Source of the DNA: Candidatus Cloacimonadales bacterium
Lineage (GTDB): Bacteria > Cloacimonadota > Cloacimonadia > Cloacimonadales > DAONDQ01
Reading direction: 5' to 3'
Length of the DNA stretch: 64,000 bases
NCBI GenBank assembly: GCA_963662275.1
Contig: OY759316.1
Span: forward strand, 3,712,001-3,776,000
In this document: piece after piece, positions 10,432 to 27,071 of the stretch
Layout: the number at the start of each line of letters is the position of its first letter
Position numbering within the stretch: position 1 is the stretch's first letter
Notes under the pieces: generated by a model
What the model saw: the letters and a program-made list of their open reading frames with translations, nothing else
What the model was told of the DNA's origin: nothing
Database searches by the model: none
Made by a program: the position numbers and the translations under genes

Positions 10432-10446
10432 GTTATGCCCCCTTGC

Positions 10447-11424
10447 TTAAAACTTCACCAGTTTTTCGATTTCGTAAGCAATTCGTTCTGGTGGAATGAT
10501 GTAAAAATGTTCACCAAGCGGAAGAGGAACGATCGTATCGAACCCGCTTAATCGAACCGGTGGCGCTTCCAAGTGCAGAAATGCCTCTTCAATACAAATC
10601 GTCACTAATTCAGCTCCGGCACCAAAGCGTGAAGGGGCTTCTGAAACGATGAGGACACGTCCTGTTTTTTGAACCGATTGCCGAATGGTATCCCGATCAA
10701 TGGGATAAATCGTACGCAGATCGATGAGTTCAACGGAAATACTCTTATCCTTCAGCAAGACCATTGCCCGTTGTACTTCCCGAACCATGGCGCCATAGGC
10801 AATCACGGTGATGTGTTCACCTACATTCAGTACATTTGCTTTGCCGATGGGGATGGTGAACTTCTCTTCCGGTACTTCCTGTTTAATAGCTCTATATAAG
10901 CGTTTAGGCTCCATAAATATGATAGGGTCTTCAGACTCAATAGCGCTGATGAGCAGACCTTTGGCATCGTAAGGAGTGGAGGGAATCACGACCTGCAAGC
11001 CCGGGTATTGGGCAAAGAGAGCTTCAGGGCTTTCAGAATGGTGCTCCAAAGCATTGATGCCTCCGCCATAGGGAAAACGAATGACCATTGGAGCATGGAA
11101 CTTGCCTCTTGAACGGTTGCGTATCCTTGCCACATGTGAGAATATCTGGTTGAGTGCCGGATAGGAAAAGCCATCGAACTGCATCTCCACAATAGGTCTT
11201 AAACCGGCGATAGCCATACCTAAACCGCTACCTGCAATGGCTGCCTCTGCCAGGGGAGAATCGAAGACACGTGCTTCACCGTATTTCTTCTGGAGATTTT
11301 CAGTCACACGGAACACACCGCCTTCCACACCTACATCTTCACCAAAAAGGATGATCTTCGGATCTTCAGCAAGTTTGATATCAAGAGCATTATTGATTGC
11401 CTGTACTAGATTCATGACGCTCAT
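10447..11424 (-). CDS. pdhB: 2-oxoacid (pyruvate or branched-chain) dehydrogenase E1 beta
   Basis: GEDVGVEGGVFRVT, FDSPLAE, EHHSESPE. Confidence 0.92.
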   Translation of the reverse strand: MSVMNLVQAINNALDIKLAEDPKIILFGEDVGVEGGVFRVTENLQKKYGEARVFDSPLAEAAIAGSGLGMAIAGLRPIVEMQFDGFSYPALNQIFSHVARIRNRSRGKFHAPMVIRFPYGGGINALEHHSESPEALFAQYPGLQVVIPSTPYDAKGLLISAIESEDPIIFMEPKRLYRAIKQEVPEEKFTIPIGKANVLNVGEHITVIAYGAMVREVQRAMVLLKDKSISVELIDLRTIYPIDRDTIRQSVQKTGRVLIVSEAPSRFGAGAELVTICIEEAFLHLEAPPVRLSGFDTIVPLPLGEHFYIIPPERIAYEIEKLVKF

Positions 11425-12509
11425 TTTGCCCCCTCAGTTGCTGCAATAAATTGCTCGTATGCTTTTCTCTGGCGTTTGAGTTCATCAGGAACATAGCTAT
11501 ATAAATGGTTAAACACATCATCGAGCGGATAGGTAGAATAGTTTTCTGCTATTTCGAATTCAGTTTCCACCAGCTTTTGATATGTTTGAACCAACTCATC
11601 TTCATCTGCTTGCGTGATCAATTTCTTTTCCTGCAGGTACAAACGTAGGCGAAGAAGCGGGTCTCTTTCCAGCCACAGCTTTTCTTCTTCACCTGTCCTA
11701 TAGCGTGTGGGATCATCCGAGGTGGTATGAGCTCCCTGCCGATAAGTGACAGCTTCTATCAGAACAGGTCCTTTTCCGCTTTCCGCATAAGCCCTGGCTT
11801 CTGTCAGGACATCCAGCATGGCTAAGTAGTCATTGCCATCGACCAGGATACCTGGAATGCCATATGCAATCGCTTTGCTGGCAAGATTGATGGAATTTGT
11901 CTGCTTCTTGATGGGCATGGAGATAGCAAACTGGTTATTCTGGATGATGCAGATCAGGGGCACTTTCCAGACCGAAGCGAAGTTAATTGCTTCATGGAAA
12001 TCACCTTCCGATGTTCCACCATCACCCACAAAGCCAAAGACAACTGACTTTTCCTGTTTGAATTTCATGGCATAAGCGATACCGGTGGCATATTGAATTT
12101 GAGAGGCAATGGGAACAGCCGAAGGGAGTAATCGATTCGCTTTTTCAAAACGGGAACCACGTTCATCACCCCGATAATACATGAAAATCTCATGTAATTC
12201 TGCACCCTTTGCCAACCAAGCTCCCATTTCACGAAAGGCTGGAACCAGCCAATCTTCTTCGCTGATGACCTTCCCCGCTGCGGCTGAAATGGCTTCCTGC
12301 CCAAGATTGGGAGGGAACGTGAACATCCTGCCCTGCCGTTGAAAGCTGACTGCCATCAGGTCAGCAGTTCGGTTGAAAAGCATTGTTTTGAATGCGTCTA
12401 AAAGTAGTTTATCATTGAATTCAAATTGAGTTGGAGAGGCAACTATCTTACCTGTTTGATCCATGATTTGGATCATTTCATTCTTGAGGGGATCGTAGGT
12501 CTCGATCAT
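11421..12509 (-). CDS. pdhA: 2-oxoacid (pyruvate or branched-chain) dehydrogenase E1 alpha
   Basis: QRQGRM, GQEA, TPP motif GDGGTSEGDFHE...NN, GAHTTSDDP. Confidence 0.92.
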   Translation of the reverse strand: MIETYDPLKNEMIQIMDQTGKIVASPTQFEFNDKLLLDAFKTMLFNRTADLMAVSFQRQGRMFTFPPNLGQEAISAAAGKVISEEDWLVPAFREMGAWLAKGAELHEIFMYYRGDERGSRFEKANRLLPSAVPIASQIQYATGIAYAMKFKQEKSVVFGFVGDGGTSEGDFHEAINFASVWKVPLICIIQNNQFAISMPIKKQTNSINLASKAIAYGIPGILVDGNDYLAMLDVLTEARAYAESGKGPVLIEAVTYRQGAHTTSDDPTRYRTGEEEKLWLERDPLLRLRLYLQEKKLITQADEDELVQTYQKLVETEFEIAENYSTYPLDDVFNHLYSYVPDELKRQRKAYEQFIAATEGAK

Positions 12510-12627: not shown

Positions 12628-13214
12628 CCACAAGAACCCCAATTATTAGCAACGTATTTACCCGCCATAGAATCTTATATTTCTGCACTATCAGTAGTAG
12701 GAAACACAGCATTTTTGTCAGATATTTCGTTAGGTTTATTGATTGTCGACATTTCTAACCCCCAAGAACCTCAGCTTATAGGTTCCTATATTCCTTCCGG
12801 ATATATCAAAGAGATTGAATCAAGAGATAATCTTCTATATATAATTGAAAACCGTGATTATTTGAAAGTGATCGATGTCTCCAATCCTAATGATCTACAA
12901 ATACTTGGTTCATATGAAACAACTGGCATTGCTCAATCGCTTGCTGTCATTGAAGAGACAGCTTATATCGTAAGCAGCAGTCCAGATTTACTATGTTTGG
13001 AAGTCCTGGATGTTTCTAATCCTGATTTGCCCATCATACTTTTTGATTATCCATTTCATTCTACAAGTCAGATAACAGGAGTATATATTAAAGATAATTA
13101 TCTATTTGTTATGGAACTGATTATGAAGGAAAAGCAATTGCTTCCGGAGTGTATTTTGCTAAGCTAAGCTCAGAAGGAATAAGTACAGGCAGAAAACTGC
13201 TGTTATTGAAATGA
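12628..13214 (+). pseudogene. Relic of an LVIVD-repeat secreted protein fused out of frame to a C-terminal sorting-domain tail
   Basis: LLIVDISNPQEPQ, LKVIDVSNP and LEVLDVSNP repeats with no start or signal peptide; from ~13113 another frame reads GTDYEGKAIASGVYFAKLSSEGISTGRKLLLLK*. Confidence 0.7.
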
Positions 13215-13238
13215 TGAAGATCGCATCATAAGCTGATG

Positions 13239-13556
13239 TTATGCTTGCTGCAGAATATTGATCAGCACTTCCTTGTATTTTTCGAAAGCTCTTCTTCCTC
13301 GATTCGTGAGACGTAATAGGGTATGGGGTACCCGGTTTACAAATTCCTTCATAATCTCGACATAGCCGTTTTGCTCTAATTTCAGTAACTGTGCCGAAAG
13401 ATTTCCTTTAGTCAATCCTGTTTTGCGTAACATGTAAACAAAATCTGCTTTATCCACGACATATAAATATAGCATGATGTTCAGTCGAGCTGGTTCATGG
13501 ATGATCCGATCAATATCTTCAATACTGGTCTCTGTAAGATTGTCTTCAGTTCTCAT
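13239..13556 (-). CDS. Winged-helix transcriptional regulator (ArsR/MarR-like, HTH_34 type)
   Basis: IDRIIHEPARLNIM...LTKGNLSAQLLKLEQNGYV...LTNRGRRAF. Confidence 0.85.
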   Translation of the reverse strand: MRTEDNLTETSIEDIDRIIHEPARLNIMLYLYVVDKADFVYMLRKTGLTKGNLSAQLLKLEQNGYVEIMKEFVNRVPHTLLRLTNRGRRAFEKYKEVLINILQQA

Positions 13557-14151
13557 CTTTCATCACCGGATATACTATCATGAATTTAAGCAACTGGATA
13601 ATTCCGAAGATAAAATCGAAAACACCTAAGATAAAAATGTAAAACATCAGATTGTTATGATGGAGAATGCCAGAATATATTAAAGCAATAAGAGCAAGAA
13701 TTATTACCCCATAAAGAAGAAAGCCTATGTTTTGTTCACAGAAATAACGGTATAAGAGCAAAATTATGATGAAGAGGGCGATACTTATCATTATCCCAAG
13801 GTGCATGTTCTTTTCAATGGCAGGTGAGATACTGTGACTTTGGAAATACAGCATTAAACCAAATCCCAAGATTAGTAGAATGGCTATGAAAATTTGGATG
13901 AAACTCCTGGAAGTTTTCTTATCACTAATTTCTGCATAACCAATCCTGGGGTAAGTGTAACTTTTTTTTAAGATGGATATTAATACAGGAATAAATGGAA
14001 TAAAGATTACAGCAAAATTCATTTTTCCTATTGAACCGAGAATTGCTATTATCATCAGATACAAACCAACAACAATATGAGATATGCCATCCTTATGCTT
14101 CTGTTCATGTAATACATCGATTCTAACTTGAGTAAGAAAGTCATTTTTCAT
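13546..14151 (-). CDS. Integral membrane protein (about 6 TM segments), co-transcribed with the wHTH regulator
   Basis: Hydrophobic segments, YPRIGYA motif, overlap with the regulator start. Confidence 0.7.
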   Translation of the reverse strand: MKNDFLTQVRIDVLHEQKHKDGISHIVVGLYLMIIAILGSIGKMNFAVIFIPFIPVLISILKKSYTYPRIGYAEISDKKTSRSFIQIFIAILLILGFGLMLYFQSHSISPAIEKNMHLGIMISIALFIIILLLYRYFCEQNIGFLLYGVIILALIALIYSGILHHNNLMFYIFILGVFDFIFGIIQLLKFMIVYPVMKDEN

Positions 14152-14168
14152 GATGTTCTCCTTTGATG

Positions 14169-14197
14169 TAAACAGGTTTATGGTGTAAACTTGTTTA
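14169..14197. promoter_or_regulatory. Inverted repeat, probable operator of the wHTH regulator operon
   Basis: TAAACAGGTTTA-tggtg-TAAACTTGTTTA (12-bp arms, one mismatch) just upstream of the 14151 start. Confidence 0.45.
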
Positions 14198-14359
14198 AGA
14201 TAGTATATTCAGTCAAGAAAAATCTCACCCTTTTTTTTGATCCTATTATTAAAAATAACTTGCAGGATTATTTGAATGCATATGTCCTATCACTTTTCCT
14301 TTATATGAATAGAAATTGCATTGTTCATACTTTCCCTAAAAACCTAACTAGGAGGTTAC

Positions 14360-14608
14360 ATGAGGTCTGCAAAAGTCAGTAATCTGGCTATCAGTGACAA
14401 CGGCTTCGTTTTTGATCCGACAACCGGTTACAGCTATAATACAAATGAGATGGGCTTTTTTCTCTTGAAATTAATGGAGGAAGGATTCGAACAGGATGAG
14501 ATCATTACCCGTATCATGGATGAATATGAAGTAAACCATGACACTTTGGAACGTGACCTAGATTTTTTCAGCCTGCAGATGAAATCTCTTGGTTTGCTGG
14601 AAGACTAA
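14360..14608 (+). CDS. PqqD-family / RiPP recognition element (RRE)-like protein
   Basis: 82 aa, AGGAGG RBS; beta segment FVFDPTTGYSYNTNEMGFFLL followed by three helices ending EYEV...LERDLDFF..QMKSLGLL, typical of PqqD. Confidence 0.8.
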   Translation: MRSAKVSNLAISDNGFVFDPTTGYSYNTNEMGFFLLKLMEEGFEQDEIITRIMDEYEVNHDTLERDLDFFSLQMKSLGLLED

Positions 14609-14776
14609 GATGTCATTTTCTTTAGCTCATTTCAAAGGCACGATCGCTGTCAGTGGTCTGAAAACCGGAGATAATCCGCAGCCGGGTGTACCTGTTATCC
14701 GTAGTATCCGCAATGCTGGATTCGAAGGTAAAATCATTGGTTTGATCTATGATTCGCTTGAATCAGGTATCTATGT

Positions 14777-16637
14777 GAGACTGTTCATGAAGTTATTCAT
14801 AATATTCAATAAGTTAGAAAGTAGCAAGTTGAAAAAAGTGGTCGAAACGGTCATAATTTAACATACCTTCCAGAATTGACAGATAAGCTCTGCTAAGGAC
14901 ACCAAATCACAAGTTAAGCTTTTTGACTAAAATTGAAAAACACGCGATTATAAGTAATGTTTCGAAGCCGTTTCTGACTAAATGTGTAGTTAAAATCATA
15001 TAAAATAGTTCTTTACAAGTTTTTTGCTATAGCTTCAATGGCATTTGTTACCTGGTAACAAAAGGGAGGATATTATGACAAAAAAACACTCCAATTCAAG
15101 AAGCGGTAAGTGTTAGTCATGAAAGTAACCAATACCATGTAAGTATTAACGTACCATTTTCATTCACTTTGCCTGAGACAACATCAAACCACAAGTTCTT
15201 AATAGCGTTTCTACGCTTATTAGTAGGAATAGGCGGAGACAACCTCCTTACACTTCAGCAAATAGCTGATCTGTTTAACTACGCAGACCGCAGGAATGTA
15301 CATAATTTCTGGCAAGAGTTTGAGCAGCATGGTCATGATATCCTGGCATATTTAAGCCGGAAAGTTGACCTGCTGGAGTGTATTCCTCAGATCGAGAATT
15401 TTGTTATCAATAACCTGCTTTTACCTTTAAATGTCATGTATCAGGAGTTCATCAGCCATCATGATTTTAAAATGTCCTATACCACTTTCTGCAAATATGC
15501 TTCTCAGGTCAATTCTCTGTCTGTAGTTAAGCAAGCTCAGAAGCTTCTTCTGAAAAAGACAGTAGGCGGTGATGCTGTACATCTGCTGAAACTGCTTGCC
15601 GGTCAGCAGAATACACCTGTTATCTGTGACAGACTCCTGGAACAAATGAAGACTGCTAAAGGCAATACATCCCATAGAACCGCCGATGCAAAGCCGTTCC
15701 ATAGTCTGGAACGCAAGAACCTGTGTCTGCTGGTACATTACCTGGTTGGAAGCGGTATGAACTTCGAGACGATAGCTTTGCTGCTCAACACCTGTAAAGC
15801 TACAGTCTCAAATCTCTGGCATGAAATCGCTGACCTGCAGAGCCTGATTCTGAACTCAATCGGTAAGTGGAGCGGAAAGATCAGCATTGATGAGAAATAT
15901 GTGAAGATCAAAGGTATTCCGTACTATGTCATCAGTATTGTTGATTTTGTGACTCACATCCCTCTGTTTTGTGAGTTGTATCCTGACACAAAGAAAGAAT
16001 CATTCGAAGCATGTTTCAGAACCTTCAGACAGCTCTACAGGAAAGATCCAACCCTGATTGTCAGTGATGGCAGTAAATCGTTAGCAGTTGCAAGAAAAAC
16101 AGTGTTTCCAAAAGTCCATTACCAACTCTGTAAGTTCCATAAGATACGAAATCTCTTCAAAAGAATCAGTCAATGTCATCTCCCTGAAGACAGGGACAAG
16201 TTCTTTAAGAAGAGGATTATGAAAGCTTTCCGAAGAGAAACGGCGGGCGGAAGGAAAAAGGGTATCGCAAGCCTGACAGCTATTACTCCCCCAACCGCCG
16301 CCGAATACATCAAAAGCAATATCATTAGTGATTGGAGACACCTCAGCAAAGGTTTGACTTCCAATGTCTCTGAACGCTGGAACCGCAAAATCAAGAAGGT
16401 GACATCCGGTAGATTTGGACTAAAATCTGAAGAAACCACCCGCAACCTTGTGTTTTCGCTTTGGTTCAAAGAACTGGTCGATAAAGGTCAACCAATCATG
16501 CGTCAGGAATCACTTTTAGCAAGTTTAAATATCTCCCGCATATGTCAAGAAAATGTGGATTGGTCGCACTTAGACCACTTTTTCTCTGTCACTACCAATA
16601 AGGCTGCGTAAAATGGAGGTTAATTTTGAACAGTCTC
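14777..16637 (+). mobile_element. Insertion sequence, 1861 bp, DDE transposase (IS6/IS240-like catalytic motifs, family uncertain)
   Basis: Terminal inverted repeats GAGACTGTTCA / TGAACAGTCTC; 8-bp target duplication ATCTATGT at 14769-14776 and 16638-16645. Confidence 0.92.
15075..16611 (+). CDS. DDE transposase (RBS-linked ATG at 15075 is out of frame by 1 nt at an A7 run; long ORF annotated from 15169)
   Basis: ISIDEKYVKIKG, IVSDGSKSL, QLCKFHK and SNVSERWNRKIK motifs. Confidence 0.8.
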
Positions 16638-17877
16638 ATCTATGTTGACGGTCTTGTGGATAAAGTTTACCAAATGCCCTATCCCTCAGAAGGGGCAGAG
16701 ACATTCATGGATAGGATGGATTACATCCTGTCACATGATAAGATTGATGTCATTATTCCAACCCTAGACTCGGAAATTATTACATATTTACGTCTGAAAA
16801 GTGAATTGATCAATCGTGGGGTGCATACTTTCCTACCTGAAGAAGAACAATTCATCCTAAGAGATAAAACAAAACTCAGCACATTCTTTCCCCCAAAAGG
16901 TATCGCTGTTCCTAAAACAATTATCATGAATGATCCGAGGCAAGCGAAAGATATCTCCAAGGACATACCCTTCCCTGTGATTGTGAAGGGACGATTTTAT
17001 GAAGCTTTTGCAGCAAACAATCCCGATGAAGTAGTTAAATTATACCACCTGATTGAACATAAATGGGGATTACCCATACTTGTTCAGGAGATTATTATTG
17101 GTGATGAATTCAATGTCGTGATCATCGGTGATGGCAAAGGTAAAACAATCGGTATGGTGCCTCAACGAAAACTGGTGATTACAGATAAAGGCAAGGGTTT
17201 CGGGGGAGTTGTTGTTAAGAATGAGAAACTGGAAGCATTTTCCAAGAAGATTATCGAGATTCTGCATTGGCGTGGTCCTTGTGAATTGGAAATCATGAAG
17301 GATAGTAAAGATGATTTTTATCTGTTAGAAATCAATCCCCGCTTTCCAGCCTGGGTAAGATTAGCAGAAGGTGCCGGTCAGAATTTACCCGCTGCAACTG
17401 TAGCCTTGGCTATGGGAGAAAAAGTGGAACCGTTCACCGAATGTAACACCGGAACTCTCTTTATTCGTCATGCAGAAGATTTAATTTCGAATATTGCAGT
17501 GATGGGAGAGATCTCTACAATGGGGGAACTCACGAAGTGCGAAGTGCGAAGTGCAAAGTCCGAAGCGGAAGAGAAGAATAAAACCACGAAACACACGAAA
17601 ATCACGAAAGAAGATAAGTGATAGAATATCTTGCAAAGATGTGTTCCCATTCCTCTCTTTGGATATAGAGAGGTGGTGGTTACTGAGCGTAGTCGAAGCA
17701 TAGTGTCGAAGAGTTTGAGAAACAGTATGTAAATACGAAGTTAAAGAAACTTAGGAAAGATGAAGAGCAGAACTTACTCTCGTCTAATATAGTTGACCCC
17801 CTTAATCCTCCCTTAACAAGAGGGTAAAAGAGCGGGGAACCAGATAAAGACCAGAATTAAAATAAAAGGTGTATAGA

Positions 17878-19227
17878 ATGAAAAAGTCATATAGTCCGCC
17901 CTATATTGAGAAGAACAATGCCGGATTCATGAATAAATTCGCTTATCGCAGCGTCGTGAATTACCAGGATAAAATTGAGAATATTCCGATTGAATCGATT
18001 GTTTCCAAATATGGTTCACCGGTATTTGTTTTTACTGAAGCTACAATTCGTAAAAGATACCGTCGCTTGCTCCAGTCCATAAGTATGCACTATCCGAATG
18101 TGGAAATCTCGTGGTCATATAAAACCAATTACCTGGGGGCAATATGCAAAATATTCCACCAGGAGGGTGCAAAAGCGGAGGTTGTGAGCGGATTTGAATA
18201 TGAAAAAGCACGTGATTTGGGAGTTGCCGGAAGAGATATTATTTTCAATGGACCTGGAAAAAGAGAGCATGAAGTACGCACTGCCATGGAAGATGGAGCA
18301 AAGATACATATCGATCATCTTGATGAATTATTCATGGTGGAAAGAATTGCCAGGGAACTTGGTAAAGTAGCGGAAGTTGCGATTAGAGTCAATATGGATA
18401 CAGGTATCTACCCTCAATGGTCACGTTTTGGCTTTAATTATGATAACGGTGAAGCATATCGAACGATCCAGCGCATCGTTGCCGGCAAGAAATTGAAACT
18501 CACAGGTCTCCATACACACATAGGTACTTTCATTTTAGATGCAAATGCCTATTATGTGGCTGCTTCAAAACTACTGGCATTGGCTCAGAAAGTAAAGGAA
18601 GATTTCCATTTTGCCATTTCCTATATCGACCTGGGTGGTGGATTTGCTTCTAATAACACATTACATGATTCCTATACACCCGGTGAATTCTCTGCCCCAT
18701 CATTTGATCAATATGCACGTGCCATTGGAACAGCGTTCAATGAATCCCAGTTTTCACGGGAAGAATCACCTCTACTCATCCTGGAATCAGGACGTATTCT
18801 TATCGATGAATCAGGTTATCTGATTGCCAGTGTGCTTGGGAAGAAGAACCTTCCAAGCGGAGAGAGAGGTATCATCCTGGATGCCGGTCTGAATATCCTG
18901 TTTACGACTTGGTGGTACAAACTCAAGATAACACCCACCCAGCCATTTAGTGGAACCTATCAGAATACTCTGTTCAACGGTCCTTTATGTATGAATATTG
19001 ATGTAGTTCGACCGCCTTTCAGCTTTCCTGATCTACAGACTGGAGATCACATTCTTGTCAATCCGGTTGGTGCTTATAATGTCACTCAATGGATGCAATT
19101 CATTGAATATCGACCGAATGTCATTCTGATTACAGAAACTGGTGATCTGGAACTCATTCGGGAAAAGGAAACACTCCAGGATGTAATTCAACGGGAACGA
19201 ATCCCTGAGCATTTAAGGAAAATCTAA
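17878..19227 (+). CDS. PLP-dependent fold-type III decarboxylase (diaminopimelate/ornithine decarboxylase-like)
   Basis: YGSPVFV, WSYKTN (PLP lysine), FNGPGK, HTHIG, IDLGGGF, ESGR, GPLCMNID, GAY; N-terminal extension MKKSYSPPYIEK. Confidence 0.85.
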   Translation: MKKSYSPPYIEKNNAGFMNKFAYRSVVNYQDKIENIPIESIVSKYGSPVFVFTEATIRKRYRRLLQSISMHYPNVEISWSYKTNYLGAICKIFHQEGAKAEVVSGFEYEKARDLGVAGRDIIFNGPGKREHEVRTAMEDGAKIHIDHLDELFMVERIARELGKVAEVAIRVNMDTGIYPQWSRFGFNYDNGEAYRTIQRIVAGKKLKLTGLHTHIGTFILDANAYYVAASKLLALAQKVKEDFHFAISYIDLGGGFASNNTLHDSYTPGEFSAPSFDQYARAIGTAFNESQFSREESPLLILESGRILIDESGYLIASVLGKKNLPSGERGIILDAGLNILFTTWWYKLKITPTQPFSGTYQNTLFNGPLCMNIDVVRPPFSFPDLQTGDHILVNPVGAYNVTQWMQFIEYRPNVILITETGDLELIREKETLQDVIQRERIPEHLRKI

Positions 19228-19230
19228 GGA

Positions 19231-21399
19231 ATGTTATCATTCCGCGAAGTCGTCAGTAAAATTGCCTTCATACCGAAAGCGATATTGAACTCATACAGTA
19301 TTATTCTATTTTCATATAATCGCTGGATCGGTTTATTACTATTGTCCAGTACTTTTCTTGCTCCTATTGTAGGGATATCCGGATTGATTGGAGTCCTAAT
19401 CGCACTATTAACAGCAAGGTTACTAGGATTTGAACCTTGGAACTCAACCTCAGGGATCTTGTCATTCAATAGCCTTCTGACTTGCCTTGGAATCGGATTT
19501 TATTTTCCCGTCGCAAGCTATGGTCTTGGTGTGTTATATCTTTTACTTTTCATTGGATCGATATTCACATTATTGCTGTATATCACACTCGATAATTTGC
19601 TCTATGGCAAACTGAAAATACCCTCGATGAGTATGTCATTTTCCATCGTATCTATCTTTATGTGGCTGTTTTTAATGCGCATTGGACATAGTCAGCACTT
19701 GCCTCATAACCAGATGTACGTAATGAATTTCACACCTGTTGTACCTGTATTTGTGCTGAATTATTTCCAAAGTATAGGTGGTATATTCTTTCAACCCTAT
19801 TTCCTGACAGGACTATGTATCGCTGTTGCCTTGTTTTTCATTAGTCGGATAGGATTTCTACTATCAATCATTGGATATACCGTTGGGTATTTTTTCATCA
19901 TTCACTGGGGAGGTAAGGGAGCAAGCGATGTCTTTTATCCCGGTTTCAACATGATGTTGGCAGCTTTTGCGATTGGCGGAATCTTTCTTGTTCCAAGTAG
20001 AATATCCTATTTGTTAGCGATTATAGCTGCCTTCATTGGAATAGTCATTGCGTTCTCCATTGAAACATTATTTCGTGATTTCATGATTCCCCCATTTGCA
20101 TTGCCTTTCAATGTTACCGTTTATATGATAATCTATGCCTTACAATTACGTCTCAAGAATCGAAATCCCTATGTGAATGACTTTAATATACTTCACCCGG
20201 AATTAGCTTTGGAATATTACTTATCCCATATCAACCGTTTTGCCCGTTCAGGAGTTCCCCAGTTCTTCTTACCTATTACAGGTGAATGGACAGTGACCCA
20301 GGGAAATCATGGTGAAATCACACATAAATCAGATTGGGCATATGCCTGGGATTTTGAAATAATGGATCGGGAAGGTAAGAATTATCATCATCATGCCGAG
20401 GAAGTTGATGATTATTATTGTTATGGAAAAGCCGTTTATGCTTCTGCAGGTGGATACGTGGCAAAAATAGTGGATGGTATTGCAGATAATCGAATCAATC
20501 AAATCAATACCGAACAGAAATGGGGTAATTATCTGACCATACAGCACGGTATTGGTGTTTATTCACTTTACGCACATTTAAAATCGGGTAGTGTGAAATT
20601 GAAAGTCGGTGATTATATCCCGCAGGGAGAGAAAATTGCTTTGATTGGTAATTCAGGACGCTCTGCTGTACCGCATCTTCATTTTCATATCCAGACCACA
20701 TATGAAGCCGGCTCAAAAACTTTATTCAGCAATATAGCCAATTATAAGAAACGGGAAAAGGTCAGCCAATCACATTTTATCAGTTTTGGAAATCCGAAGC
20801 TAGCTGATTTGATTTCTCCCCTCATGGCAGAATTGAATTTGCAGGAAATTATGCATTTTCTGCTTTTCCAGAAATTATCCTTTGATGTTACCATTGGGAA
20901 ACGGCATTTTGAAGAAAATTGGGAAGTGGAAGTGACACTAATCGGAACATTTAATATCCACTCTGACCGGGGTAGTTATCTTGATTTCTCCGTTTACAAC
21001 GGTATATATAACGCTCTTGCATTCCGGGGTAATCGGAAAAGTGCCTTATATGCCTTCGCCTTATTGCTTTCCAGATATCCCTATGCAGAGAATCAAACGC
21101 TCGAGTGGAATGATACACCTTCATTCTCTGTAATGATGAAACCATTAATAAAACAAATTGTCTTATTGATTTCTTCTATTGGGAATCCTTTCAAATTTAA
21201 TACAAAATCAATTTCTCATTCGGAAGATAATAAACATGAAGTCGAATCTCTGACAACTGTAAGTTTTTTGGGAAAACTATTGATTAGCTACGAAGGTAGG
21301 ATTCAAATGGAAAAAAAGACTGGTATCGAGATGATCGATATTCACAAGAATGGAAAAGAATATTTACAAGCGCAAAGAATTCAGGATAAGAAATCCTGA
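19231..21399 (+). CDS. Urea-transporter-like membrane domain fused to an M23 metallopeptidase domain
   Basis: N-terminal multi-TM region with GILSFN, SIGGIFF and ALPFN urea-transporter-like motifs; then TQGNHGEITH...AWDF, WGNY, YAHLK, GNSGRSAVPHLHF (M23). Confidence 0.75.
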   Translation: MLSFREVVSKIAFIPKAILNSYSIILFSYNRWIGLLLLSSTFLAPIVGISGLIGVLIALLTARLLGFEPWNSTSGILSFNSLLTCLGIGFYFPVASYGLGVLYLLLFIGSIFTLLLYITLDNLLYGKLKIPSMSMSFSIVSIFMWLFLMRIGHSQHLPHNQMYVMNFTPVVPVFVLNYFQSIGGIFFQPYFLTGLCIAVALFFISRIGFLLSIIGYTVGYFFIIHWGGKGASDVFYPGFNMMLAAFAIGGIFLVPSRISYLLAIIAAFIGIVIAFSIETLFRDFMIPPFALPFNVTVYMIIYALQLRLKNRNPYVNDFNILHPELALEYYLSHINRFARSGVPQFFLPITGEWTVTQGNHGEITHKSDWAYAWDFEIMDREGKNYHHHAEEVDDYYCYGKAVYASAGGYVAKIVDGIADNRINQINTEQKWGNYLTIQHGIGVYSLYAHLKSGSVKLKVGDYIPQGEKIALIGNSGRSAVPHLHFHIQTTYEAGSKTLFSNIANYKKREKVSQSHFISFGNPKLADLISPLMAELNLQEIMHFLLFQKLSFDVTIGKRHFEENWEVEVTLIGTFNIHSDRGSYLDFSVYNGIYNALAFRGNRKSALYAFALLLSRYPYAENQTLEWNDTPSFSVMMKPLIKQIVLLISSIGNPFKFNTKSISHSEDNKHEVESLTTVSFLGKLLISYEGRIQMEKKTGIEMIDIHKNGKEYLQAQRIQDKKS

Positions 21400-21416
21400 T
21401 AGATTAAGGAGACATA

Positions 21417-22025
21417 ATGACTAAGATTTCTTCCATCATAATAATGGTGCTTTTCATAAGTAACATATTATTTGCTCAACCTGCAGCAACACTGCTTCAA
21501 ACATCTTATAATGCAGAAGCCGGCAATAATTTCCAGCTTGCTATTGAATCGATAAAAACCATAGAAAAAGACAACGATGCAGATCCATTTTATAAGTTGA
21601 GACTGGGATGGCTTTATTATAGCTCTGGTCAGTACCAATCTGCTTTGGATTACTATACGAAAGCATCTTCCCTTACAAATTGCCTGGAAGCTAAGGAAGG
21701 TATCATCAATTCTGCTTATTTGCTGGGAAAATGGGATAAAGTCATTGCTACCGGAAATCTGATACTAGATAAATTCCCCGATCATTATTCAGCATTAACA
21801 AAGACTGCTTATTCACAATATGTCCTTAAGAACTATGTAGCTGCTGCCAGTATTTACTATAAGTTACTGAATTATTATCAGTATAACTTGGAAATACGTG
21901 GTTATTACTTAAGCTGCCAGGTTCTTGCAGGTGATCTTGTCAATGCCAAGAGAACATTCCAACAATTGCAGCAATACAGTCCGAACAATCCTTTTATTCT
22001 TGAATATGCCAAGAAATTCCGTTGA
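21417..22025 (+). CDS. Exported tetratricopeptide repeat protein
   Basis: Signal peptide; LRLGWLYYSSGQYQSALDYY and further TPR-like helix pairs. Confidence 0.75.
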   Translation: MTKISSIIIMVLFISNILFAQPAATLLQTSYNAEAGNNFQLAIESIKTIEKDNDADPFYKLRLGWLYYSSGQYQSALDYYTKASSLTNCLEAKEGIINSAYLLGKWDKVIATGNLILDKFPDHYSALTKTAYSQYVLKNYVAAASIYYKLLNYYQYNLEIRGYYLSCQVLAGDLVNAKRTFQQLQQYSPNNPFILEYAKKFR

Positions 22026-22038
22026 TTAAGTTGAAGTA

Positions 22039-23388
22039 ATGAAATTTTCTTTGCTGCTTGTCGTGTTGTGTATTACCAGTATTTTACTTGCTCAATCTAA
22101 TGAAGCAGATGTCCAAGATAGTACCAGGTATATTCAAAACCCTGTTGAAAGTCCAGTTCAACATAATCTGCAAGCTTATGAGTTAATGATGGCTGGTCAT
22201 TATACTCTGGCACTCAAGGAATATGAAATTGCGTTAAAGCTCAATTCATCTGATTCCGTTGCCCGTGAAGGAATTCTCTGGGCTAATAATAGCCTTCATC
22301 GTTGGAAAAATACGATTACCACAGGTCAGAAATACCTGAAAAAGTTTGGTTATGATGCAAACATCGAATTATATCTTGCCTATGCATACTTTGCAAAAAC
22401 AGATTATCTACATGCCCGTCAGTGTTATCTATGGAGCTCTGAATACTTAGGCTGGTATGCAGCAAATACTTCTGGGATGGCTTGGACTTTTCGTATGTTA
22501 GGTGATCATACCAGGGAAAGGAAATTCACTCGAAAATGGGAAATGCTTGTTCCGGATTCACTGAAGGCAATTGTATCTCCCCCCCCCTATCCTCTATATC
22601 TTGGTCATGCTCAATATGCATATTCTACCTGGAATGATAACGAAAAGTCTTTTTTACAGCATTACACTCTTCGCTATCAGAATATTGCAGTTACTTGCGG
22701 AGTAGAAGATATTTGGCAGAATCATCATCTCCTAAGAACTGACTATCTTGCCTCCCTGAATTGGGAAACTCCTATAAGCAGCATGGAATGGAGAGGTAAC
22801 TGGCTGAAAGGGGATTATTCAAATTTATACCCGGCAAATTCGCATTTGATTAGTATCAGTAAACTACTTTATGTATCTAAAACACAGTTAGTTCCGGAAA
22901 TTAATGCAGGATACTCATATTATCCTGTTCTTTCGGTATCACAAATAGCCTTCAAACAATCCTATATTCGTGATTCCTGGTGGTTTAGTTATAGCCATGC
23001 TTTGATATATAAGGATTATGATAGTCCCGGTTTGGATTCCAGGAGTAATTGGGCTACCTGGGATGTTGGGACTAGGTTATTAACTAACCTAACTGTTGAT
23101 TTCTATACATCTCATGGTGATCGGACATTTTATGTGAGCAGGGAAATTGGTGTTGTTGATAACAACGTCTCAGCAAAACTGCAATATGGAGCATACTTAC
23201 AATACAATTACAGAATTTTAAATTTAGGGTGTAGTTACTCTAAATCAAAGCATAAGGATAATGAATATTCTTCAACTGTAAGTGTCAATCTCGGGATTGA
23301 TTATTCCCTGAAGGCAACGTATAACGCTGATCATGTTAAAGCTCATTCTGTAAAGCATGATGCCGAACATGCTGGAGTTAAATTCTAA
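22039..23388 (+). CDS. Exported protein with N-terminal TPRs and a probable C-terminal beta-barrel
   Basis: Signal peptide, TPR helices, aromatic-rich alternating strands, C-terminal Phe. Confidence 0.55.
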   Translation: MKFSLLLVVLCITSILLAQSNEADVQDSTRYIQNPVESPVQHNLQAYELMMAGHYTLALKEYEIALKLNSSDSVAREGILWANNSLHRWKNTITTGQKYLKKFGYDANIELYLAYAYFAKTDYLHARQCYLWSSEYLGWYAANTSGMAWTFRMLGDHTRERKFTRKWEMLVPDSLKAIVSPPPYPLYLGHAQYAYSTWNDNEKSFLQHYTLRYQNIAVTCGVEDIWQNHHLLRTDYLASLNWETPISSMEWRGNWLKGDYSNLYPANSHLISISKLLYVSKTQLVPEINAGYSYYPVLSVSQIAFKQSYIRDSWWFSYSHALIYKDYDSPGLDSRSNWATWDVGTRLLTNLTVDFYTSHGDRTFYVSREIGVVDNNVSAKLQYGAYLQYNYRILNLGCSYSKSKHKDNEYSSTVSVNLGIDYSLKATYNADHVKAHSVKHDAEHAGVKF

Positions 23389-26300
23389 TGAAAGTACGTA
23401 TCTTATTCTTTCTGTGTATCTTCTGCCTTCTCTTAGTCAGTTGCGATAAACGCCATAATAGTAAACTTCCAACCGGTATCTCTCCCTTTGATTATATTGA
23501 AAGTAACATCATTTCCGACAGTACAAATTACCTGGTTCGGAGCACAAATGATGATTCATATATTTTTATTAATAAAACAGCTATTTCCAGTAGTGTCTTG
23601 AAGAAAGGCGATTATCTTTGGTTTTCTCATACCCAGAGTTTTTCAGCCCGTGATTCCGTTGCCATTGCCGATGGGATGAGTCCTATTACAGATGCGCTTT
23701 ATTTCTATGTATATCGTGATTCCATTATGATTCCTATGCAATTCAACACAGGCATGGTCAAGCTCTTTACAAAACCTTTATCAGCTCTTTCCAATGTGAA
23801 AGTGTTGCGTTTTGATGAGAAGTATATTACTTCAGATCATGTGACAGGCATTGCTATGGATAAAGATAATGCCGTCATACCTGTTTCCAAGACAGGTTTC
23901 TTCCAATATTATCAACAGGGGGAAGTTTCCACCTCTGTGGAGTTCACAAGCAACGGTCAAAACTTTTATGCCTGGCATCCTGACTTTTCCACATTTCTTC
24001 CTGCTGATACACAATGGAATGAAAAACATCTGAAATTTACAGAACAAAGCACTTTAACATCCACGCAACAAACACAGGTGGAAACAGTCTTCCCTAGTTT
24101 CGCACAAACGGATAAGATTATTACCTATGAATTATCGGCTGCCGTTACGACAACTCTTTATCCTGAAATCAGGATGTGGAAACAGCCTGCCAAGTTTACT
24201 CCCCAAATGGTTGTATTCCAGCCCGGGACTACAAGTAGCATGTATAGCCTCGATACAGTGGATGATCTTTGGTTAGACCAGGTTACATATAAGGATATAT
24301 ACCTGAAATACCAGGGTACTTATTGCTTCGTCAGCCCTTTATCAGCACAAAACCAGATCACCATTCCTCTCGATGGCACCTTGTCTCAATTGTATTTAAA
24401 CAGGTTATATCTAGATTTGAGAGGGGTTACATTATCGAATGGAAGTCTCAACATCGATCTTTCAAATTACAGCAGAACACTTCCTGCTATATATAATGGA
24501 ACTATTTTCAATGTAACAGATCAAAAACTGCCAGTTACATTTTCTTTTATGCAAAATGGAAGTCCATTAACTGAATTACCGGATTCTCTTTGGATAGAAG
24601 TTGGTATTTCCCTTCCTTCTGGTACAGATACATCAAACCAAAAGTGGTTTGGATATCATTTGGATGATTCTTTGGAAGAATCATTGTACTATTCACTGGG
24701 TACATCTTATGATGCAACGCATTACTCAGTAGCAAATCAATATTTGTTTTTTCCCCTGGCGTTAAGTGGTTTATACTTTTTAGGATCAGATAGCAATACA
24801 TCCCAGTCTTTTACTATCCCTGTCATTCGTGAGTCGGCAATTTACCAGATACGGAATATGACTATCAGTTATGGCGGGGCAATTACGGCAAACTTGAGTC
24901 ATTATTACTTGAATCTGCAACCTCAAGTGGATTTAACACAACCCATATTCCAAGGGAAGCCATATGAGTTAAGCGGAACACAGGCTGCATTCAAGGCTGG
25001 TTTTTTCAAGAATAATGCCTGGACAGATGATGTTCCAAAAACACATCTTATCCAATATCGAAATAACAGACGAAGCCGTAGTAATCATATCCTTATTTAT
25101 AAAAATACTGATGACTGGCAAAAGACGGTTTTACTGACATCAGGTAATCAACTGGATGTAAGCCACTTTGTGCAAAGCGGAACAGATTACACGATTGGTG
25201 GCATCATGGGAGGCAATTACATCCTGACGAATGTGGATAACCTGTCTTCAGCAAGTATCGATTTTGCTCTGTACAGTCACATGTACATAGATTTTGGCTG
25301 CTTGCGAATTTCACGTGATACAGACAATGCAATTCCTTCCGATTATTATCTGCGTGCCCAGATTGATCGCTATATGCCGAGAAACGGCAGGACTTTACCT
25401 GCAATATTCCAGGGTGATATCTTTGATGTGAATGATCCCAAGATACCCGTTACGCTTTCCTATCAGCATAATGGTTCCACTGTAACCAGCCTTCCTGATT
25501 CCTTGTGGATGGAAGTGGGGATTTCACTACCATCAGGTACGGATACTACTGGACAAAGCTGGTTTGGATATCATTTGGACAGCACCATCGAAGAAGAATT
25601 CTATTCGACCCAAGCGACTTCTTATGATGCAAGTCACTATACAGTTGCAAATCAATTCCTGTATATTCCCCTTGCAGTAAGCGGTTTGTATTTTTTAGGA
25701 TCAGACAGCAACACTTCCCAGGAACATTTAATACCAGTTCTACGTGATGCGGCTTATTACCAGATGCCAAATATATCTGTCAGTTATGCAGGAGCTAAAA
25801 CAGCCGGTCTGAGTAAGTACTATTTGAATCTGCATCCGCAGGTTGATTTAACTCAGTCAATCTTTCAGAGTAAACCATATCAGTTGAGTAATACCATTGC
25901 TGCATTTCGTGCTGGGTTCTACCAGGGTAATGATGAGAATGCAACTTGGACTGAAACTGTACCCAGCAGTCACGTCATTCAATATAGAAGTTCAAGACGT
26001 AATCGCAGCAACCATATTTTAATCTACAGCAATACGGATAACTGGCAAAAAGTGTTATTGCAGAAAAATGGCAGCCAGATCGATGGAACACATTTTATGC
26101 AAAGCGGTTCAGATTATACGATTGGTGGTATTTTGGGAGGTACTTATCTATTGGCAAATGTGGATAATATAGCTGCCACTAACATCAATTTCGCTTTGTA
26201 CAGCCATATGTATCTTGATTTTGACCGAGTGAAGCTGTTTCATAGTTCTTCTGATGCTGAGCCAACAGGATACTATCTGAATACCAGGATTGACAATACA

Positions 26301-27071
26301 TTCCCTGATAGCCGAAATATCATTCAAAATCAATATCAATTACAGCAGACATCCTGGAATTACCATATTACTGCATATAATGCCACTTCACAGATTGATG
26401 CAGCCTTTTTGAAGCAGTATCAGCCTGTACTGTATTTTGCTACAACACAAAGGAACACGCCAACATTGGTGCACTTAAATCAAGACCAGGATTACCGTAT
26501 CTACACCTATCCTCAAGGTACAACACTAACTGCATATAATTATATTTCAATTAACGGATTTGAAGAAGTGATACCAAGCTACAATGGCGACTATTGCTCT
26601 TTCAGTGATTCCAGCCCACATACTGCCATCACTACGCTAATACATGCCACGACAACGGAATTAATTACTTCATTATACCAGGCACAATTTATTTTACCCG
26701 CTTTTTTTGTTAATACTGCTTTTCCAGTCGGGTATAAAATAAACCTCTCTGAAACAACAGAAGCGCCCGTGGGTACCCAGTTATTGTCCGGTTATCGCTT
26801 AATTTTTCTTGATAATAACAATAATCCTATTGATTTGAATCTTATTCAAGACTATGTGACTACGAATTACCCTTATATGTATCTGCCTTTCCCCCCAGCG
26901 AATGTTTCCAGCAACTTTCATGTACGATATATCAATGCCTTGGGAGTCAGTACTGATTATTCGAGAGTAACAAGTTTCAGCGGGACTTCCTCTACGGAGT
27001 TTATAGTAGTTGGCAATTGTGTTGTTTTGCCTGTTAATGCAAGGGGAAGATACCTGATTTCTTCTAATTAA
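23388..27071 (+). CDS. Large hypothetical lipoprotein with a ~305-aa internal duplication
   Basis: Lipobox LLVS-C; repeats begin RTLPAIYNG (24474) and RTLPAIFQG (25389); start overlaps the upstream stop. Confidence 0.7.
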   Translation: MKVRILFFLCIFCLLLVSCDKRHNSKLPTGISPFDYIESNIISDSTNYLVRSTNDDSYIFINKTAISSSVLKKGDYLWFSHTQSFSARDSVAIADGMSPITDALYFYVYRDSIMIPMQFNTGMVKLFTKPLSALSNVKVLRFDEKYITSDHVTGIAMDKDNAVIPVSKTGFFQYYQQGEVSTSVEFTSNGQNFYAWHPDFSTFLPADTQWNEKHLKFTEQSTLTSTQQTQVETVFPSFAQTDKIITYELSAAVTTTLYPEIRMWKQPAKFTPQMVVFQPGTTSSMYSLDTVDDLWLDQVTYKDIYLKYQGTYCFVSPLSAQNQITIPLDGTLSQLYLNRLYLDLRGVTLSNGSLNIDLSNYSRTLPAIYNGTIFNVTDQKLPVTFSFMQNGSPLTELPDSLWIEVGISLPSGTDTSNQKWFGYHLDDSLEESLYYSLGTSYDATHYSVANQYLFFPLALSGLYFLGSDSNTSQSFTIPVIRESAIYQIRNMTISYGGAITANLSHYYLNLQPQVDLTQPIFQGKPYELSGTQAAFKAGFFKNNAWTDDVPKTHLIQYRNNRRSRSNHILIYKNTDDWQKTVLLTSGNQLDVSHFVQSGTDYTIGGIMGGNYILTNVDNLSSASIDFALYSHMYIDFGCLRISRDTDNAIPSDYYLRAQIDRYMPRNGRTLPAIFQGDIFDVNDPKIPVTLSYQHNGSTVTSLPDSLWMEVGISLPSGTDTTGQSWFGYHLDSTIEEEFYSTQATSYDASHYTVANQFLYIPLAVSGLYFLGSDSNTSQEHLIPVLRDAAYYQMPNISVSYAGAKTAGLSKYYLNLHPQVDLTQSIFQSKPYQLSNTIAAFRAGFYQGNDENATWTETVPSSHVIQYRSSRRNRSNHILIYSNTDNWQKVLLQKNGSQIDGTHFMQSGSDYTIGGILGGTYLLANVDNIAATNINFALYSHMYLDFDRVKLFHSSSDAEPTGYYLNTRIDNTFPDSRNIIQNQYQLQQTSWNYHITAYNATSQIDAAFLKQYQPVLYFATTQRNTPTLVHLNQDQDYRIYTYPQGTTLTAYNYISINGFEEVIPSYNGDYCSFSDSSPHTAITTLIHATTTELITSLYQAQFILPAFFVNTAFPVGYKINLSETTEAPVGTQLLSGYRLIFLDNNNNPIDLNLIQDYVTTNYPYMYLPFPPANVSSNFHVRYINALGVSTDYSRVTSFSGTSSTEFIVVGNCVVLPVNARGRYLISSN

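Follow-up and report, generated by a model that had tools for sequence, protein, structure and literature searches.

RiPP recognition elements (RREs; RiPP, peptide synthesized by the ribosome and modified post-translationally) serve as markers of ribosomal peptide natural-product clusters, including in genome-mining tools. In the closest described systems, RREs of the LppB and PbaB1 kind bind the sequence [Y/W]xxPx[L/V/I/F/A], and discrete RREs deliver ligands or substrates to partner enzymes (PMC13381572, available sections). Here, we analyzed a stretch of 64,000 nucleotides from Candidatus Cloacimonadales bacterium (contig OY759316.1, positions 3,712,001 to 3,776,000 of the forward strand), hereafter called the window, whose numbering is used throughout. 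In one gene cassette of the window, we found an 82-residue PqqD-like protein resembling the B1 RREs of lasso-peptide clusters and a 449-residue decarboxylase with a leader-like N-terminal tail. The RRE quite probably grips residues 1-13 of the decarboxylase, such that an RRE of the lasso type appears to read a leader borne by an enzyme, with neither a precursor gene found nor a product described.

The solved complexes provide the reference for this comparison. According to the available sections of PMC13381572, D70 of LppB forms a hydrogen bond with the hydroxyl of the leader Tyr, as is also seen in an actinobacterial lasso complex; the kink at the leader Pro is held in place by N33, and F74 parts two hydrophobic pockets. 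PbaB1 prefers Trp and has Q79 and G42 at the positions of D70 and N33, respectively (same sections). In lasso leaders, the YxxPxL sequence spans positions -17 to -12 (PMC10368454, available part), and PqqD, FusE, McjB and StsC have been grouped as binders of a W/Y/LxxP/L/I sequence (PMC12710340, available part).

The PqqD-like protein resembles lasso B1 recognition elements

The proposed reader of the tail is the PqqD-like protein encoded at positions 14360-14608 (+ strand), which has the features of a discrete RRE of the lasso-B1 type. It matched Pfam PqqD (PF05402) with 42 bits (cut-off of 23.4) and stayed below the cut-offs of the NCBIfam lasso_PqqD models (28.4 vs 70 and 24 vs 80). The AlphaFold2 model (predicted local distance difference test score, pLDDT, of 86.7) contained strands at residues 16-19 and 24-27 and helices at 30-40, 45-55 and 60-76, a predicted arrangement that agrees with the winged-helix-like RRE/PqqD fold, in which a β-sheet is followed by three helices. 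When the model was used for a Foldseek search, the top matches were the TbiB1 structures 5v1u and 5v1v, with TM-scores of 0.85-0.88 and sequence identities of 30-32%, and TfuB1 (6jx3) was also recovered. The root mean square deviation was 1.3-1.7 Å for four of the five TbiB1 chains and 2.7 Å for the fifth. Matches to PqqD proper were far weaker (5sxy, E of 0.2; 3g2b, E of 2.2).

A profile of the family, when compared with the Protein Data Bank (PDB), retrieved exactly four sequences: TbiB1 (6e-13), TfuB1 (2e-8), PbaB1 (1e-5) and LppB (4e-3). In the profile alignment, D66 corresponded to LppB D70 and PbaB1 Q79, and N29 corresponded to LppB N33 and PbaB1 G42; F70 lies four residues past D66, as F74 does past D70 in LppB. 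Among 137 aligned sequences, N29 was kept in 136, F70 in 128 and D66 in 78, with D66 being replaced where the ligand Tyr is Phe. The alignment indicates that the protein retains the leader-binding Asn/Asp/Phe set of the lasso B1 and LppB RREs. We also considered a LysW-like carrier with a conserved C-terminal acid and rejected it, as the C-termini of the family vary in length and sequence.

The decarboxylase carries an extension ahead of its fold

The decarboxylase gene occupies positions 17878-19227 (+ strand). The open reading frame (ORF) listing opens it at GTG 17869; ATG 17878 is the likely start because most of 120 database homologues open with MKK matching that codon. The segment under study, MKKSYSPPYIEKNNAGFMNKF, is the translation of positions 17878-17940 (+ strand) and makes up residues 1-21 of this ORF, whose end is at 19227. 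A Pfam scan identified PF02784 (Orn_Arg_deC_N; 112 bits, 3e-32) and PF00278 (Orn_DAP_Arg_deC; 31 bits), and a core comprising K82, H212, H214, G253-G255, E303, C371, D375 and Y400 was invariant across the family; we presume that these residues hold the catalytic roles. By both domains and the core residues, the protein is classed as a fold-type III pyridoxal 5'-phosphate (PLP) decarboxylase of the Orn/DAP/Arg family. It scored 215 bits with the lysA model (TIGR01048; equivalog cut-off of 297.9) and 245 bits with the model of the N-citrylornithine decarboxylase FslC (NF041039; cut-off of 500), and by these curated cut-offs it is neither LysA nor FslC. The best match in the PDB was FslC (7kh2, 2e-62), followed by LysA structures and BtrK at 1e-38 to 1e-32 (BtrK, 1e-32). 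Because its closest solved relatives are FslC and BtrK, analogy suggests that the substrate is a conjugated or tethered amino acid.

The earlier note on this DNA had claimed that an extension precedes the normal fold of a LysA-like protein, and the positions at which matches begin bear this out. The lysA and FslC profiles started to match at residues 31-32, and PDB alignments began at residues 30-40, with the exception of 3vab (from residue 16). In the AlphaFold2 monomer (mean pLDDT of 82.6), the first strand began at residue 32, and the mean pLDDT was 51 for residues 1-10, 38 for residues 11-20 and 56 for residues 21-30. Bona fide LysA paralogues (382-488 bits, vs the cut-off of 297.9) were present in three of the four relatives' genomes searched, and no leader-like motif was visible by eye at their N-termini. 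Since these relatives carry a separate LysA, the cassette enzyme is not the housekeeping one. In the source genome, the sole other fold-type III decarboxylase at E of 1e-5 or better (G000:C1:1273167-1274246, locus L162) scored 171 bits with lysA, under the same cut-off, and this genome may lack a canonical LysA.

The tail is conserved in two blocks

Two conserved blocks were found in the tail, at residues 2-10 and 16-22. The first belongs to the leader-like recognition motif K-K-x-Y-x-x-P-x-I at residues 1-13 (MKKSYSPPYIEKN; positions 17878-17916, + strand), which reads K2-K3-x-Y5-x-x-P8-x-I10 in this decarboxylase and for which conservation, the predicted interface and covariation all provide evidence. 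The second is the motif G-x-x-N-K-F-G/A at residues 16-22 (GFMNKFA; positions 17923-17943, + strand), recognized by conservation and containing K20. P8 and K20 were invariant in 49 of 49 and in 137 of 137 aligned sequences. Across the 137, K2 was present in 131, E6 in 130 and I10 in 131 (Leu or Val in the rest), and the second block was similarly kept (G16, 116; F21, 127; G22, 131). Position 5 was Tyr in 86 and Phe in 51.

All 160 family members at loci L001-L160, drawn from contigs of genomes and metagenomes, carry the pattern [YF]xxPx[ILV] with a Lys 12 residues past the Pro, and the pattern [YF]xxPx[ILV] alone occurred within the first 16 residues in 13 of 921 unrelated long ORFs (1.4%), which gives the chance level. 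The alignment of cluster homologues against LysA that the earlier note had proposed as a check thus came out in favor of the motif, which is conserved in the former and not visible in the LysA paralogues. The YxxP reading of that note stands for all 160 cluster-associated homologues, with the amendment that Tyr gives way to Phe in 51 of 137; its caveat that so short a motif could be a chance match does not survive the counts and the invariance of P8 and K20. A functionless resemblance to a leader is highly improbable in view of the occurrence of the motif across several phyla and its covariation with the RRE, short as the motif is and although 13 of the unrelated ORFs carry one near the N-terminus.

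The spacing within the tail was nearly constant in the 154 sequences scored: the distance from the Pro to the Lys was 12 in 151, and that from the Lys to the GSP sequence was 26 in 147. An argument for docking from a fixed motif spacing combined with a variable linker to the fold was tried and discarded, as both spacings are fixed and do not discriminate. Residues 16-22 lie outside the confident predicted RRE interface and have pLDDT values below 50 in the monomer model. This second block (G16, N19, K20, F21 and G22) might serve as a further anchor, on the ligase of the cassette, or as the site of chemistry. A lasso-like reaction on the enzyme, with cleavage past G22 and closure of a ring, was considered and dropped, as an acidic residue 7-9 positions beyond G22, judged by eye, is frequent in Bacteroidota and missing from Cloacimonadota.

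For a separate precursor, all ORFs of 12-90 residues within 2.5 kb of the cassette were clustered over 80 loci. No conserved precursor gene was found in this set; the largest small-ORF family was present in 17 of the 80 loci, and the top families look like alternative-frame translations of flanking genes. The absence of a precursor gene, as previously claimed, was thus upheld within this range.

Predicted complex and covariation between the tail and the RRE

A complex was predicted from the RRE (50-row alignment) and tail residues 1-32 (49-row alignment), together with three controls. The ipSAE interface scores were 0.62, 0.57 and 0.61 for the complex and 0.03, 0.02 and 0.01 for the controls; the partner pLDDT was at least 58, and contact agreement among the runs was at least 98%. 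On the tail side, the predicted interface comprised residues 1-13; on the RRE side, it comprised residues 24-32 (the pairing strand), 52-58 and 62-77 (the last helix). As modeled, this is the canonical leader groove, occupied in the strand-addition mode.

Covariation provided evidence independent of the structure model. We computed mutual information with average product correction (MI-APC) over 449 × 82 = 36,818 decarboxylase-RRE column pairs from 75 paired loci, and the top inter-protein pair was tail Y5 with RRE D66 (0.469; runner-up, 0.324). When 165 pairs were inspected, Tyr5 occurred with Asp66 in 103 and with Asn66 in 8 (111 of 111). Phe5 occurred with Tyr66 in 36, with Ser in 9, with Thr in 3, with Phe in 2 and with His, Leu, Glu and Asn in 1 each, and with Asp66 in none of 54. 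When the class of residue 66 was predicted from column 5 of the decarboxylase, the prediction erred for 1 of 137 sequences, compared with 18 errors for the next best column; in the reverse direction, residue 66 predicted column 5 with 1 error, compared with 24. By these tests, the Y5/D66 covariation is not simple clade hitch-hiking, and it is what would be expected of an Asp66 that grips the Tyr hydroxyl in the manner of LppB D70.

The earlier note had proposed that the RRE docks on a leader built into the decarboxylase and had suggested a complex prediction of the RRE with the N-terminal peptide as a check. Computation supports this proposal on two counts: the peptide was placed in the expected strand-addition mode (ipSAE of 0.61, vs 0.03 for the best control), and the strongest covariation falls on the Tyr-binding Asp.

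Organization, distribution and present state of the cassette

The cassette lies on the + strand in the order PqqD-like protein, ATP-grasp ligase, decarboxylase, urea-transporter/M23 fusion and two tetratricopeptide repeat (TPR) proteins; Cloacimonadota cassettes add a large lipoprotein at the end. This order recurred in the best 80 genome loci, whose record titles name Cloacimonadota, WOR-3, Bacteroidota, Ignavibacteriota/Chlorobi, Thermotogota, Thermovibrio and one metagenome-assembled genome of Myxococcota. Together with 80 metagenome loci and 30 further genome loci, these made up a sample of 190. The PqqD gene was found upstream of the decarboxylase in 74 of the 80 genome loci, 63 of the 80 metagenome loci and 28 of the 30 further loci (165 of 190), and 24 of the 25 PqqD-negative loci have under 1.2 kb of contig left upstream of the decarboxylase. 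Scans of the genome and metagenome collections gave at least about 600 matches each, and the decarboxylase family or cassette is present on more than 1,100 contigs from several phyla. The family is patchy, being present in 31 of 401 sampled genomes in the phylum of one Bacteroidales carrier. On a Thermovibrio contig (L064; 167-917 and 2517-3846), a second, truncated PqqD-like gene and the start of a ligase gene precede the complete cassette by about 2.3 kb.

The ATP-grasp ligase gene is split in the window. Its 5' part, encoding residues 1-55, lies at positions 14610-14776 (+ strand; tblastn with the intact homologue of locus L001, 14610-14774, 76% identity), and its start overlaps the PqqD gene's end; most loci have RRE and ligase genes that overlap or abut. 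The 3' part, from homologue residue 50 on, lies at positions 16638-17621 (+ strand), where residues 50-355 of the same homologue aligned to 16626-17543 with 67% identity and Pfam identified ATPgrasp_Ter and ATP-grasp_3. The ligase family profile found carbamoyl-phosphate synthetase large chain and biotin carboxylases nearest in the PDB, and PDB matches of the single sequence and the profile gave no clue to the substrate, consisting only of generic carbamoyl-phosphate synthetase, biotin carboxylase and D-Ala-D-Ala ligase. The gap between the ligase and decarboxylase genes (17622-17877; 256 nucleotides) is unusually long, being below 100 nucleotides in most relatives, and inspection by eye showed a short inverted repeat in it, CCTCCC..GAGGG.

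The ligase gene is interrupted by an insertion sequence of 1861 bp at positions 14777-16637 (+ strand), with a transposase ORF at 15169-16611. The element is bounded by terminal inverted repeats of 11 bp, and the 8-bp target sequence ATCTATGT is duplicated at positions 14769-14776 and 16638-16645. The transposase matched Pfam MULE (32.6; cut-off of 27.6) and Transposase_mut (27.7; cut-off of 21), and scored 47.8 with the NCBIfam IS256 model, under its cut-off of 150. The transposase, inverted repeats, target duplication and multiple copies identify the element as an IS256/MULE-type insertion sequence. Because the 4.38-Mb genome contains 39 full-length copies, 32 of them listed at 100% identity, a burst of transposition looks recent, and so does the insertion into the ligase gene. 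With the ligase gene split, the cassette of the source genome is probably not working now, and the biology is therefore to be read from the intact relatives, among them the Pedobacter and Mucilaginibacter loci L020/L021.

The gene after the decarboxylase (19231-21399, + strand) encodes 722 residues with a urea-transporter-like membrane domain (Pfam UT, 3.5e-49, residues 16-303), an M23 peptidase domain (Peptidase_M23, 1.2e-16, residues 399-490) and a C-terminal region of about 230 residues to which no domain was assigned. This fusion gene follows the decarboxylase gene in nearly all loci with enough DNA. The usual UT topology would place the fused M23 domain on the cytoplasmic side, which is unusual for M23 enzymes.

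Two TPR-containing proteins of 202 and 449 residues follow (21417-23388, + strand), which were assigned from Pfam TPR matches and are putatively secreted, with signal-peptide-like N-termini as read by eye. A homologue of the 202-residue protein lies downstream in most loci. The 449-residue protein (22039-23388) gave a single weak TPR match and looks β-rich in its C-terminal half; with its 202-residue neighbor, it gives an impression of TPR-plus-barrel export modules. The next ORF (23388-27071; 1227 residues) is lipoprotein-like and contains a long internal duplication, with two alike blocks of about 300 residues each by eye; its homologues come after the cassette in Cloacimonadota loci L002-L004. 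Further upstream, three ORFs on the - strand (9052-12509) resemble, by eye, E1-alpha, E1-beta and E2 of a 2-oxoacid dehydrogenase complex.

Proposed mechanism and alternative explanations

We propose that decarboxylase residues 1-13 (K-K-x-Y/F-x-x-P-x-I) probably act as a built-in leader peptide. The RRE (14360-14608) would take up this leader as an added β-strand, lodged in the groove that its third strand and last helix form, with Asp66 holding the Tyr hydroxyl, a pocket formed by Asn29 and Phe70 holding the Pro and a second hydrophobic pocket holding the Ile; the geometry would be that solved for lasso and LPP leaders. The Y5-D66 bond is proposed because solved homologues show a Tyr-Asp contact. 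This docking is supported by the conservation, the synteny, the predicted disorder of the tail, the predicted interface and the Tyr/Asp covariation. As to its purpose, the RRE would sit on the ATP-grasp ligase, a contact that we infer because the two genes overlap, and docking would bring the decarboxylase and its G..N-K-F-G segment beside the ligase. An amide made by the ligase could then be decarboxylated at once and the product passed to the urea-channel/M23 protein. Recruitment of the decarboxylase by an RRE-ligase pair is the simplest reading because the genes overlap or abut and because ligands are brought to partner enzymes by discrete RREs; the contact of the RRE with the ligase, the chemistry and the reason for docking are all inferred.

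Several observations weigh against this docking mechanism. Residues 14-30 are likewise conserved and fixed in length, and docking of the RRE leaves that unexplained. At locus L202, 2.2 kb of upstream DNA gave no PqqD match. As to the covariation, one of the Phe5 loci has Asn66 and one has Glu66. The best trees contain about 4-5 Y/F switches, of which 2 and 1 lie on well-supported branches, and adding the 80 metagenome and 30 genome loci brought more pairs and hardly more switches. A phylogeny-aware independent-pairs sign test of the Tyr/Asp covariation was not significant, and it was unable to reach significance because there were only 4-5 switches. Of 157 solved complexes, 116 reach the mark used to judge complex predictions, as do 2 of 215 mismatched pairs; this calibration is only roughly valid here since custom alignments were used. 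Solved RRE-leader complexes with the same motif exist, so the score may partly reflect memory and speaks for likeness, not binding. In addition, Y5 and D66 are not paired with each other among the confident contacts, where Y5 meets residues 56-57 of the RRE and D66 meets residues 7-8 of the tail.

In an alternative that shares the docking and differs from the proposed mechanism only in purpose, the tail would itself be the substrate and the decarboxylase its own carrier. The RRE would hold residues 1-13 and present the post-leader segment, the ligase would load a building block on Lys20, the active site of the same subunit or of its dimer partner would decarboxylate the tethered group, and the cytoplasm-facing M23 peptidase would cut the product off at the channel for export. 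This carrier-type biosynthesis, like that of BtrI/BtrJ/BtrK, LysW/LysX and the scaffold peptides, is a possibility that we hold to be rather improbable as a whole. It would account for the second block, in which K20 (137 of 137), F21 (127 of 137) and G22 (131 of 137) are kept in a disordered segment outside the confident RRE interface. It is also consistent with the small-ORF search over 80 loci, in which no other carrier or precursor was found, with the closest solved relatives (FslC, 2e-62; BtrK, 1e-32) acting on conjugated or tethered amino acids, and with the fusion of a peptidase domain to the channel protein. The ligase profile argues in the other direction, as it resembles carbamoyl-phosphate synthetase and biotin carboxylase and not known peptide or protein ligases, and Lys20 is equally possible as a contact residue. 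To our knowledge, no enzyme that serves as its own template has a precedent, which also counts against this alternative.

It is unlikely that the N-terminal segment is instead an ordinary structural or catalytic element in this subfamily of decarboxylases, for instance a lid or a contact within the dimer, with the PqqD-like protein binding a peptide encoded elsewhere or the ligase only. The conservation of residues 1-30 throughout and their fixed length, as given by the two spacings above, would suit such a part; its disorder was seen in a monomer model, where contact with a partner subunit could not show, and the offsets of the PDB alignments indicate N-terminal extensions about as long in other members of the family. 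Against this explanation, position 5 follows RRE residue 66 more closely than does any position in the body of the decarboxylase (1 error vs at least 18) and forms with it the top pair among all 36,818; the complex prediction passes its controls, and no precursor family was found in the small-ORF search.

Regulatory docking, in which the RRE would inhibit or activate the decarboxylase by holding its tail, with no link to the ligase, seems more doubtful again. The predicted complex and the covariation apply to it equally. The RRE and ligase genes, in contrast, overlap or abut in most loci, as is typical of partners made together, and the known discrete RREs deliver substrates to enzymes (PMC13381572, available sections).

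If the docking of the decarboxylase tail on the RRE is true, leader/RRE recognition could be reused to assemble enzymes or to make an enzyme tail a template, and "orphan" RREs without precursors would be explained. It would also open a way into the chemistry of a widespread pathway, through a defined peptide, defined point mutants and the natural swap of Tyr/Asp for Phe/Tyr. If the decarboxylase is its own carrier, RiPP-style leader-guided chemistry would take place on a full-size enzyme and yield a small molecule.

Comparison with known systems

No description of the cassette was found in the literature, including the available parts of PMC7470986, PMC12710340 and PMC13622209; the supplementary RRE-neighbourhood lists of the RRE-Finder papers lie outside this search. 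The literature search likewise found no paper joining PqqD, ATP-grasp and diaminopimelate decarboxylase, and none joining three of urea transporter, M23, ATP-grasp and PqqD.

We compared the cassette with the lasso and LPP systems as the nearest references. The PqqD-like protein resembles the lasso B1 RREs (TbiB1, 5v1u/5v1v; TfuB1, 6jx3; PbaB1, 9x90) and LppB (9x8z) in its fold and in the spacing of its Asn, Asp and Phe. The tail resembles lasso and LPP leaders in carrying [Y/W]xxPx[L/V/I/F/A] after Lys and in its predicted strand addition. In contrast, the ligand here is the N-terminus of an active-looking enzyme of 449 residues, whereas theirs is a precursor of 30-60 residues. The partners also differ from those of lasso clusters, being an ATP-grasp ligase and a channel-fused M23 peptidase, and no match to a B2 leader protease or an Asn-synthetase-like cyclase was found among the 11 proteins scanned (12715-23388). 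On this gene content, the cassette does not appear to be a lasso-peptide biosynthetic cluster.

The PqqD-PqqA pair of pyrroloquinoline quinone biosynthesis offers a second comparison, in that the RRE scores in Pfam PqqD and PqqD is a small stand-alone peptide chaperone. Unlike that system, no radical-SAM partner or PqqA-like ORF was seen among the cassette genes, and PqqD structures were the weaker matches.

The butirosin BtrI/BtrJ/BtrK and the LysW/LysX pathways pair a small protein with an ATP-grasp ligase, and BtrK is a fold-type III PLP decarboxylase. The cassette joins the same three kinds of component, although its small protein is an RRE and not an acyl carrier or LysW, and its C-terminus is not conserved. 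The FslA/FslC (FigA/FigC) rhizoferrin route is comparable in that FslC is the closest relative of the decarboxylase among both solved and curated proteins, a kinship that points to a putative amino-acid substrate conjugated through its side chain. In contrast to that route, the cassette ligase is an ATP-grasp enzyme, no NIS (nonribosomal peptide synthetase-independent siderophore) synthetase was found among the cassette genes scanned, the decarboxylase scores below the FslC cut-off and the FslC alignments begin only at residue 31.

Scaffold-peptide pathways, namely those of the PEARLs and that of fosfazinomycin with FzmZ and the ATP-grasp enzyme FzmF, use a ribosomal polypeptide as a handle or template for small molecules (PMC13622209, available part). 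The cassette is similar in its putative ribosomal handle or template and, in part, in its ATP-grasp enzyme. It differs in that their scaffolds are small dedicated peptides, whereas the candidate scaffold here is the tail of the pathway's own enzyme. Compared with all of these systems, the new aspect supported by the sequences and models is that recognition of a leader by an RRE is applied to a whole enzyme.

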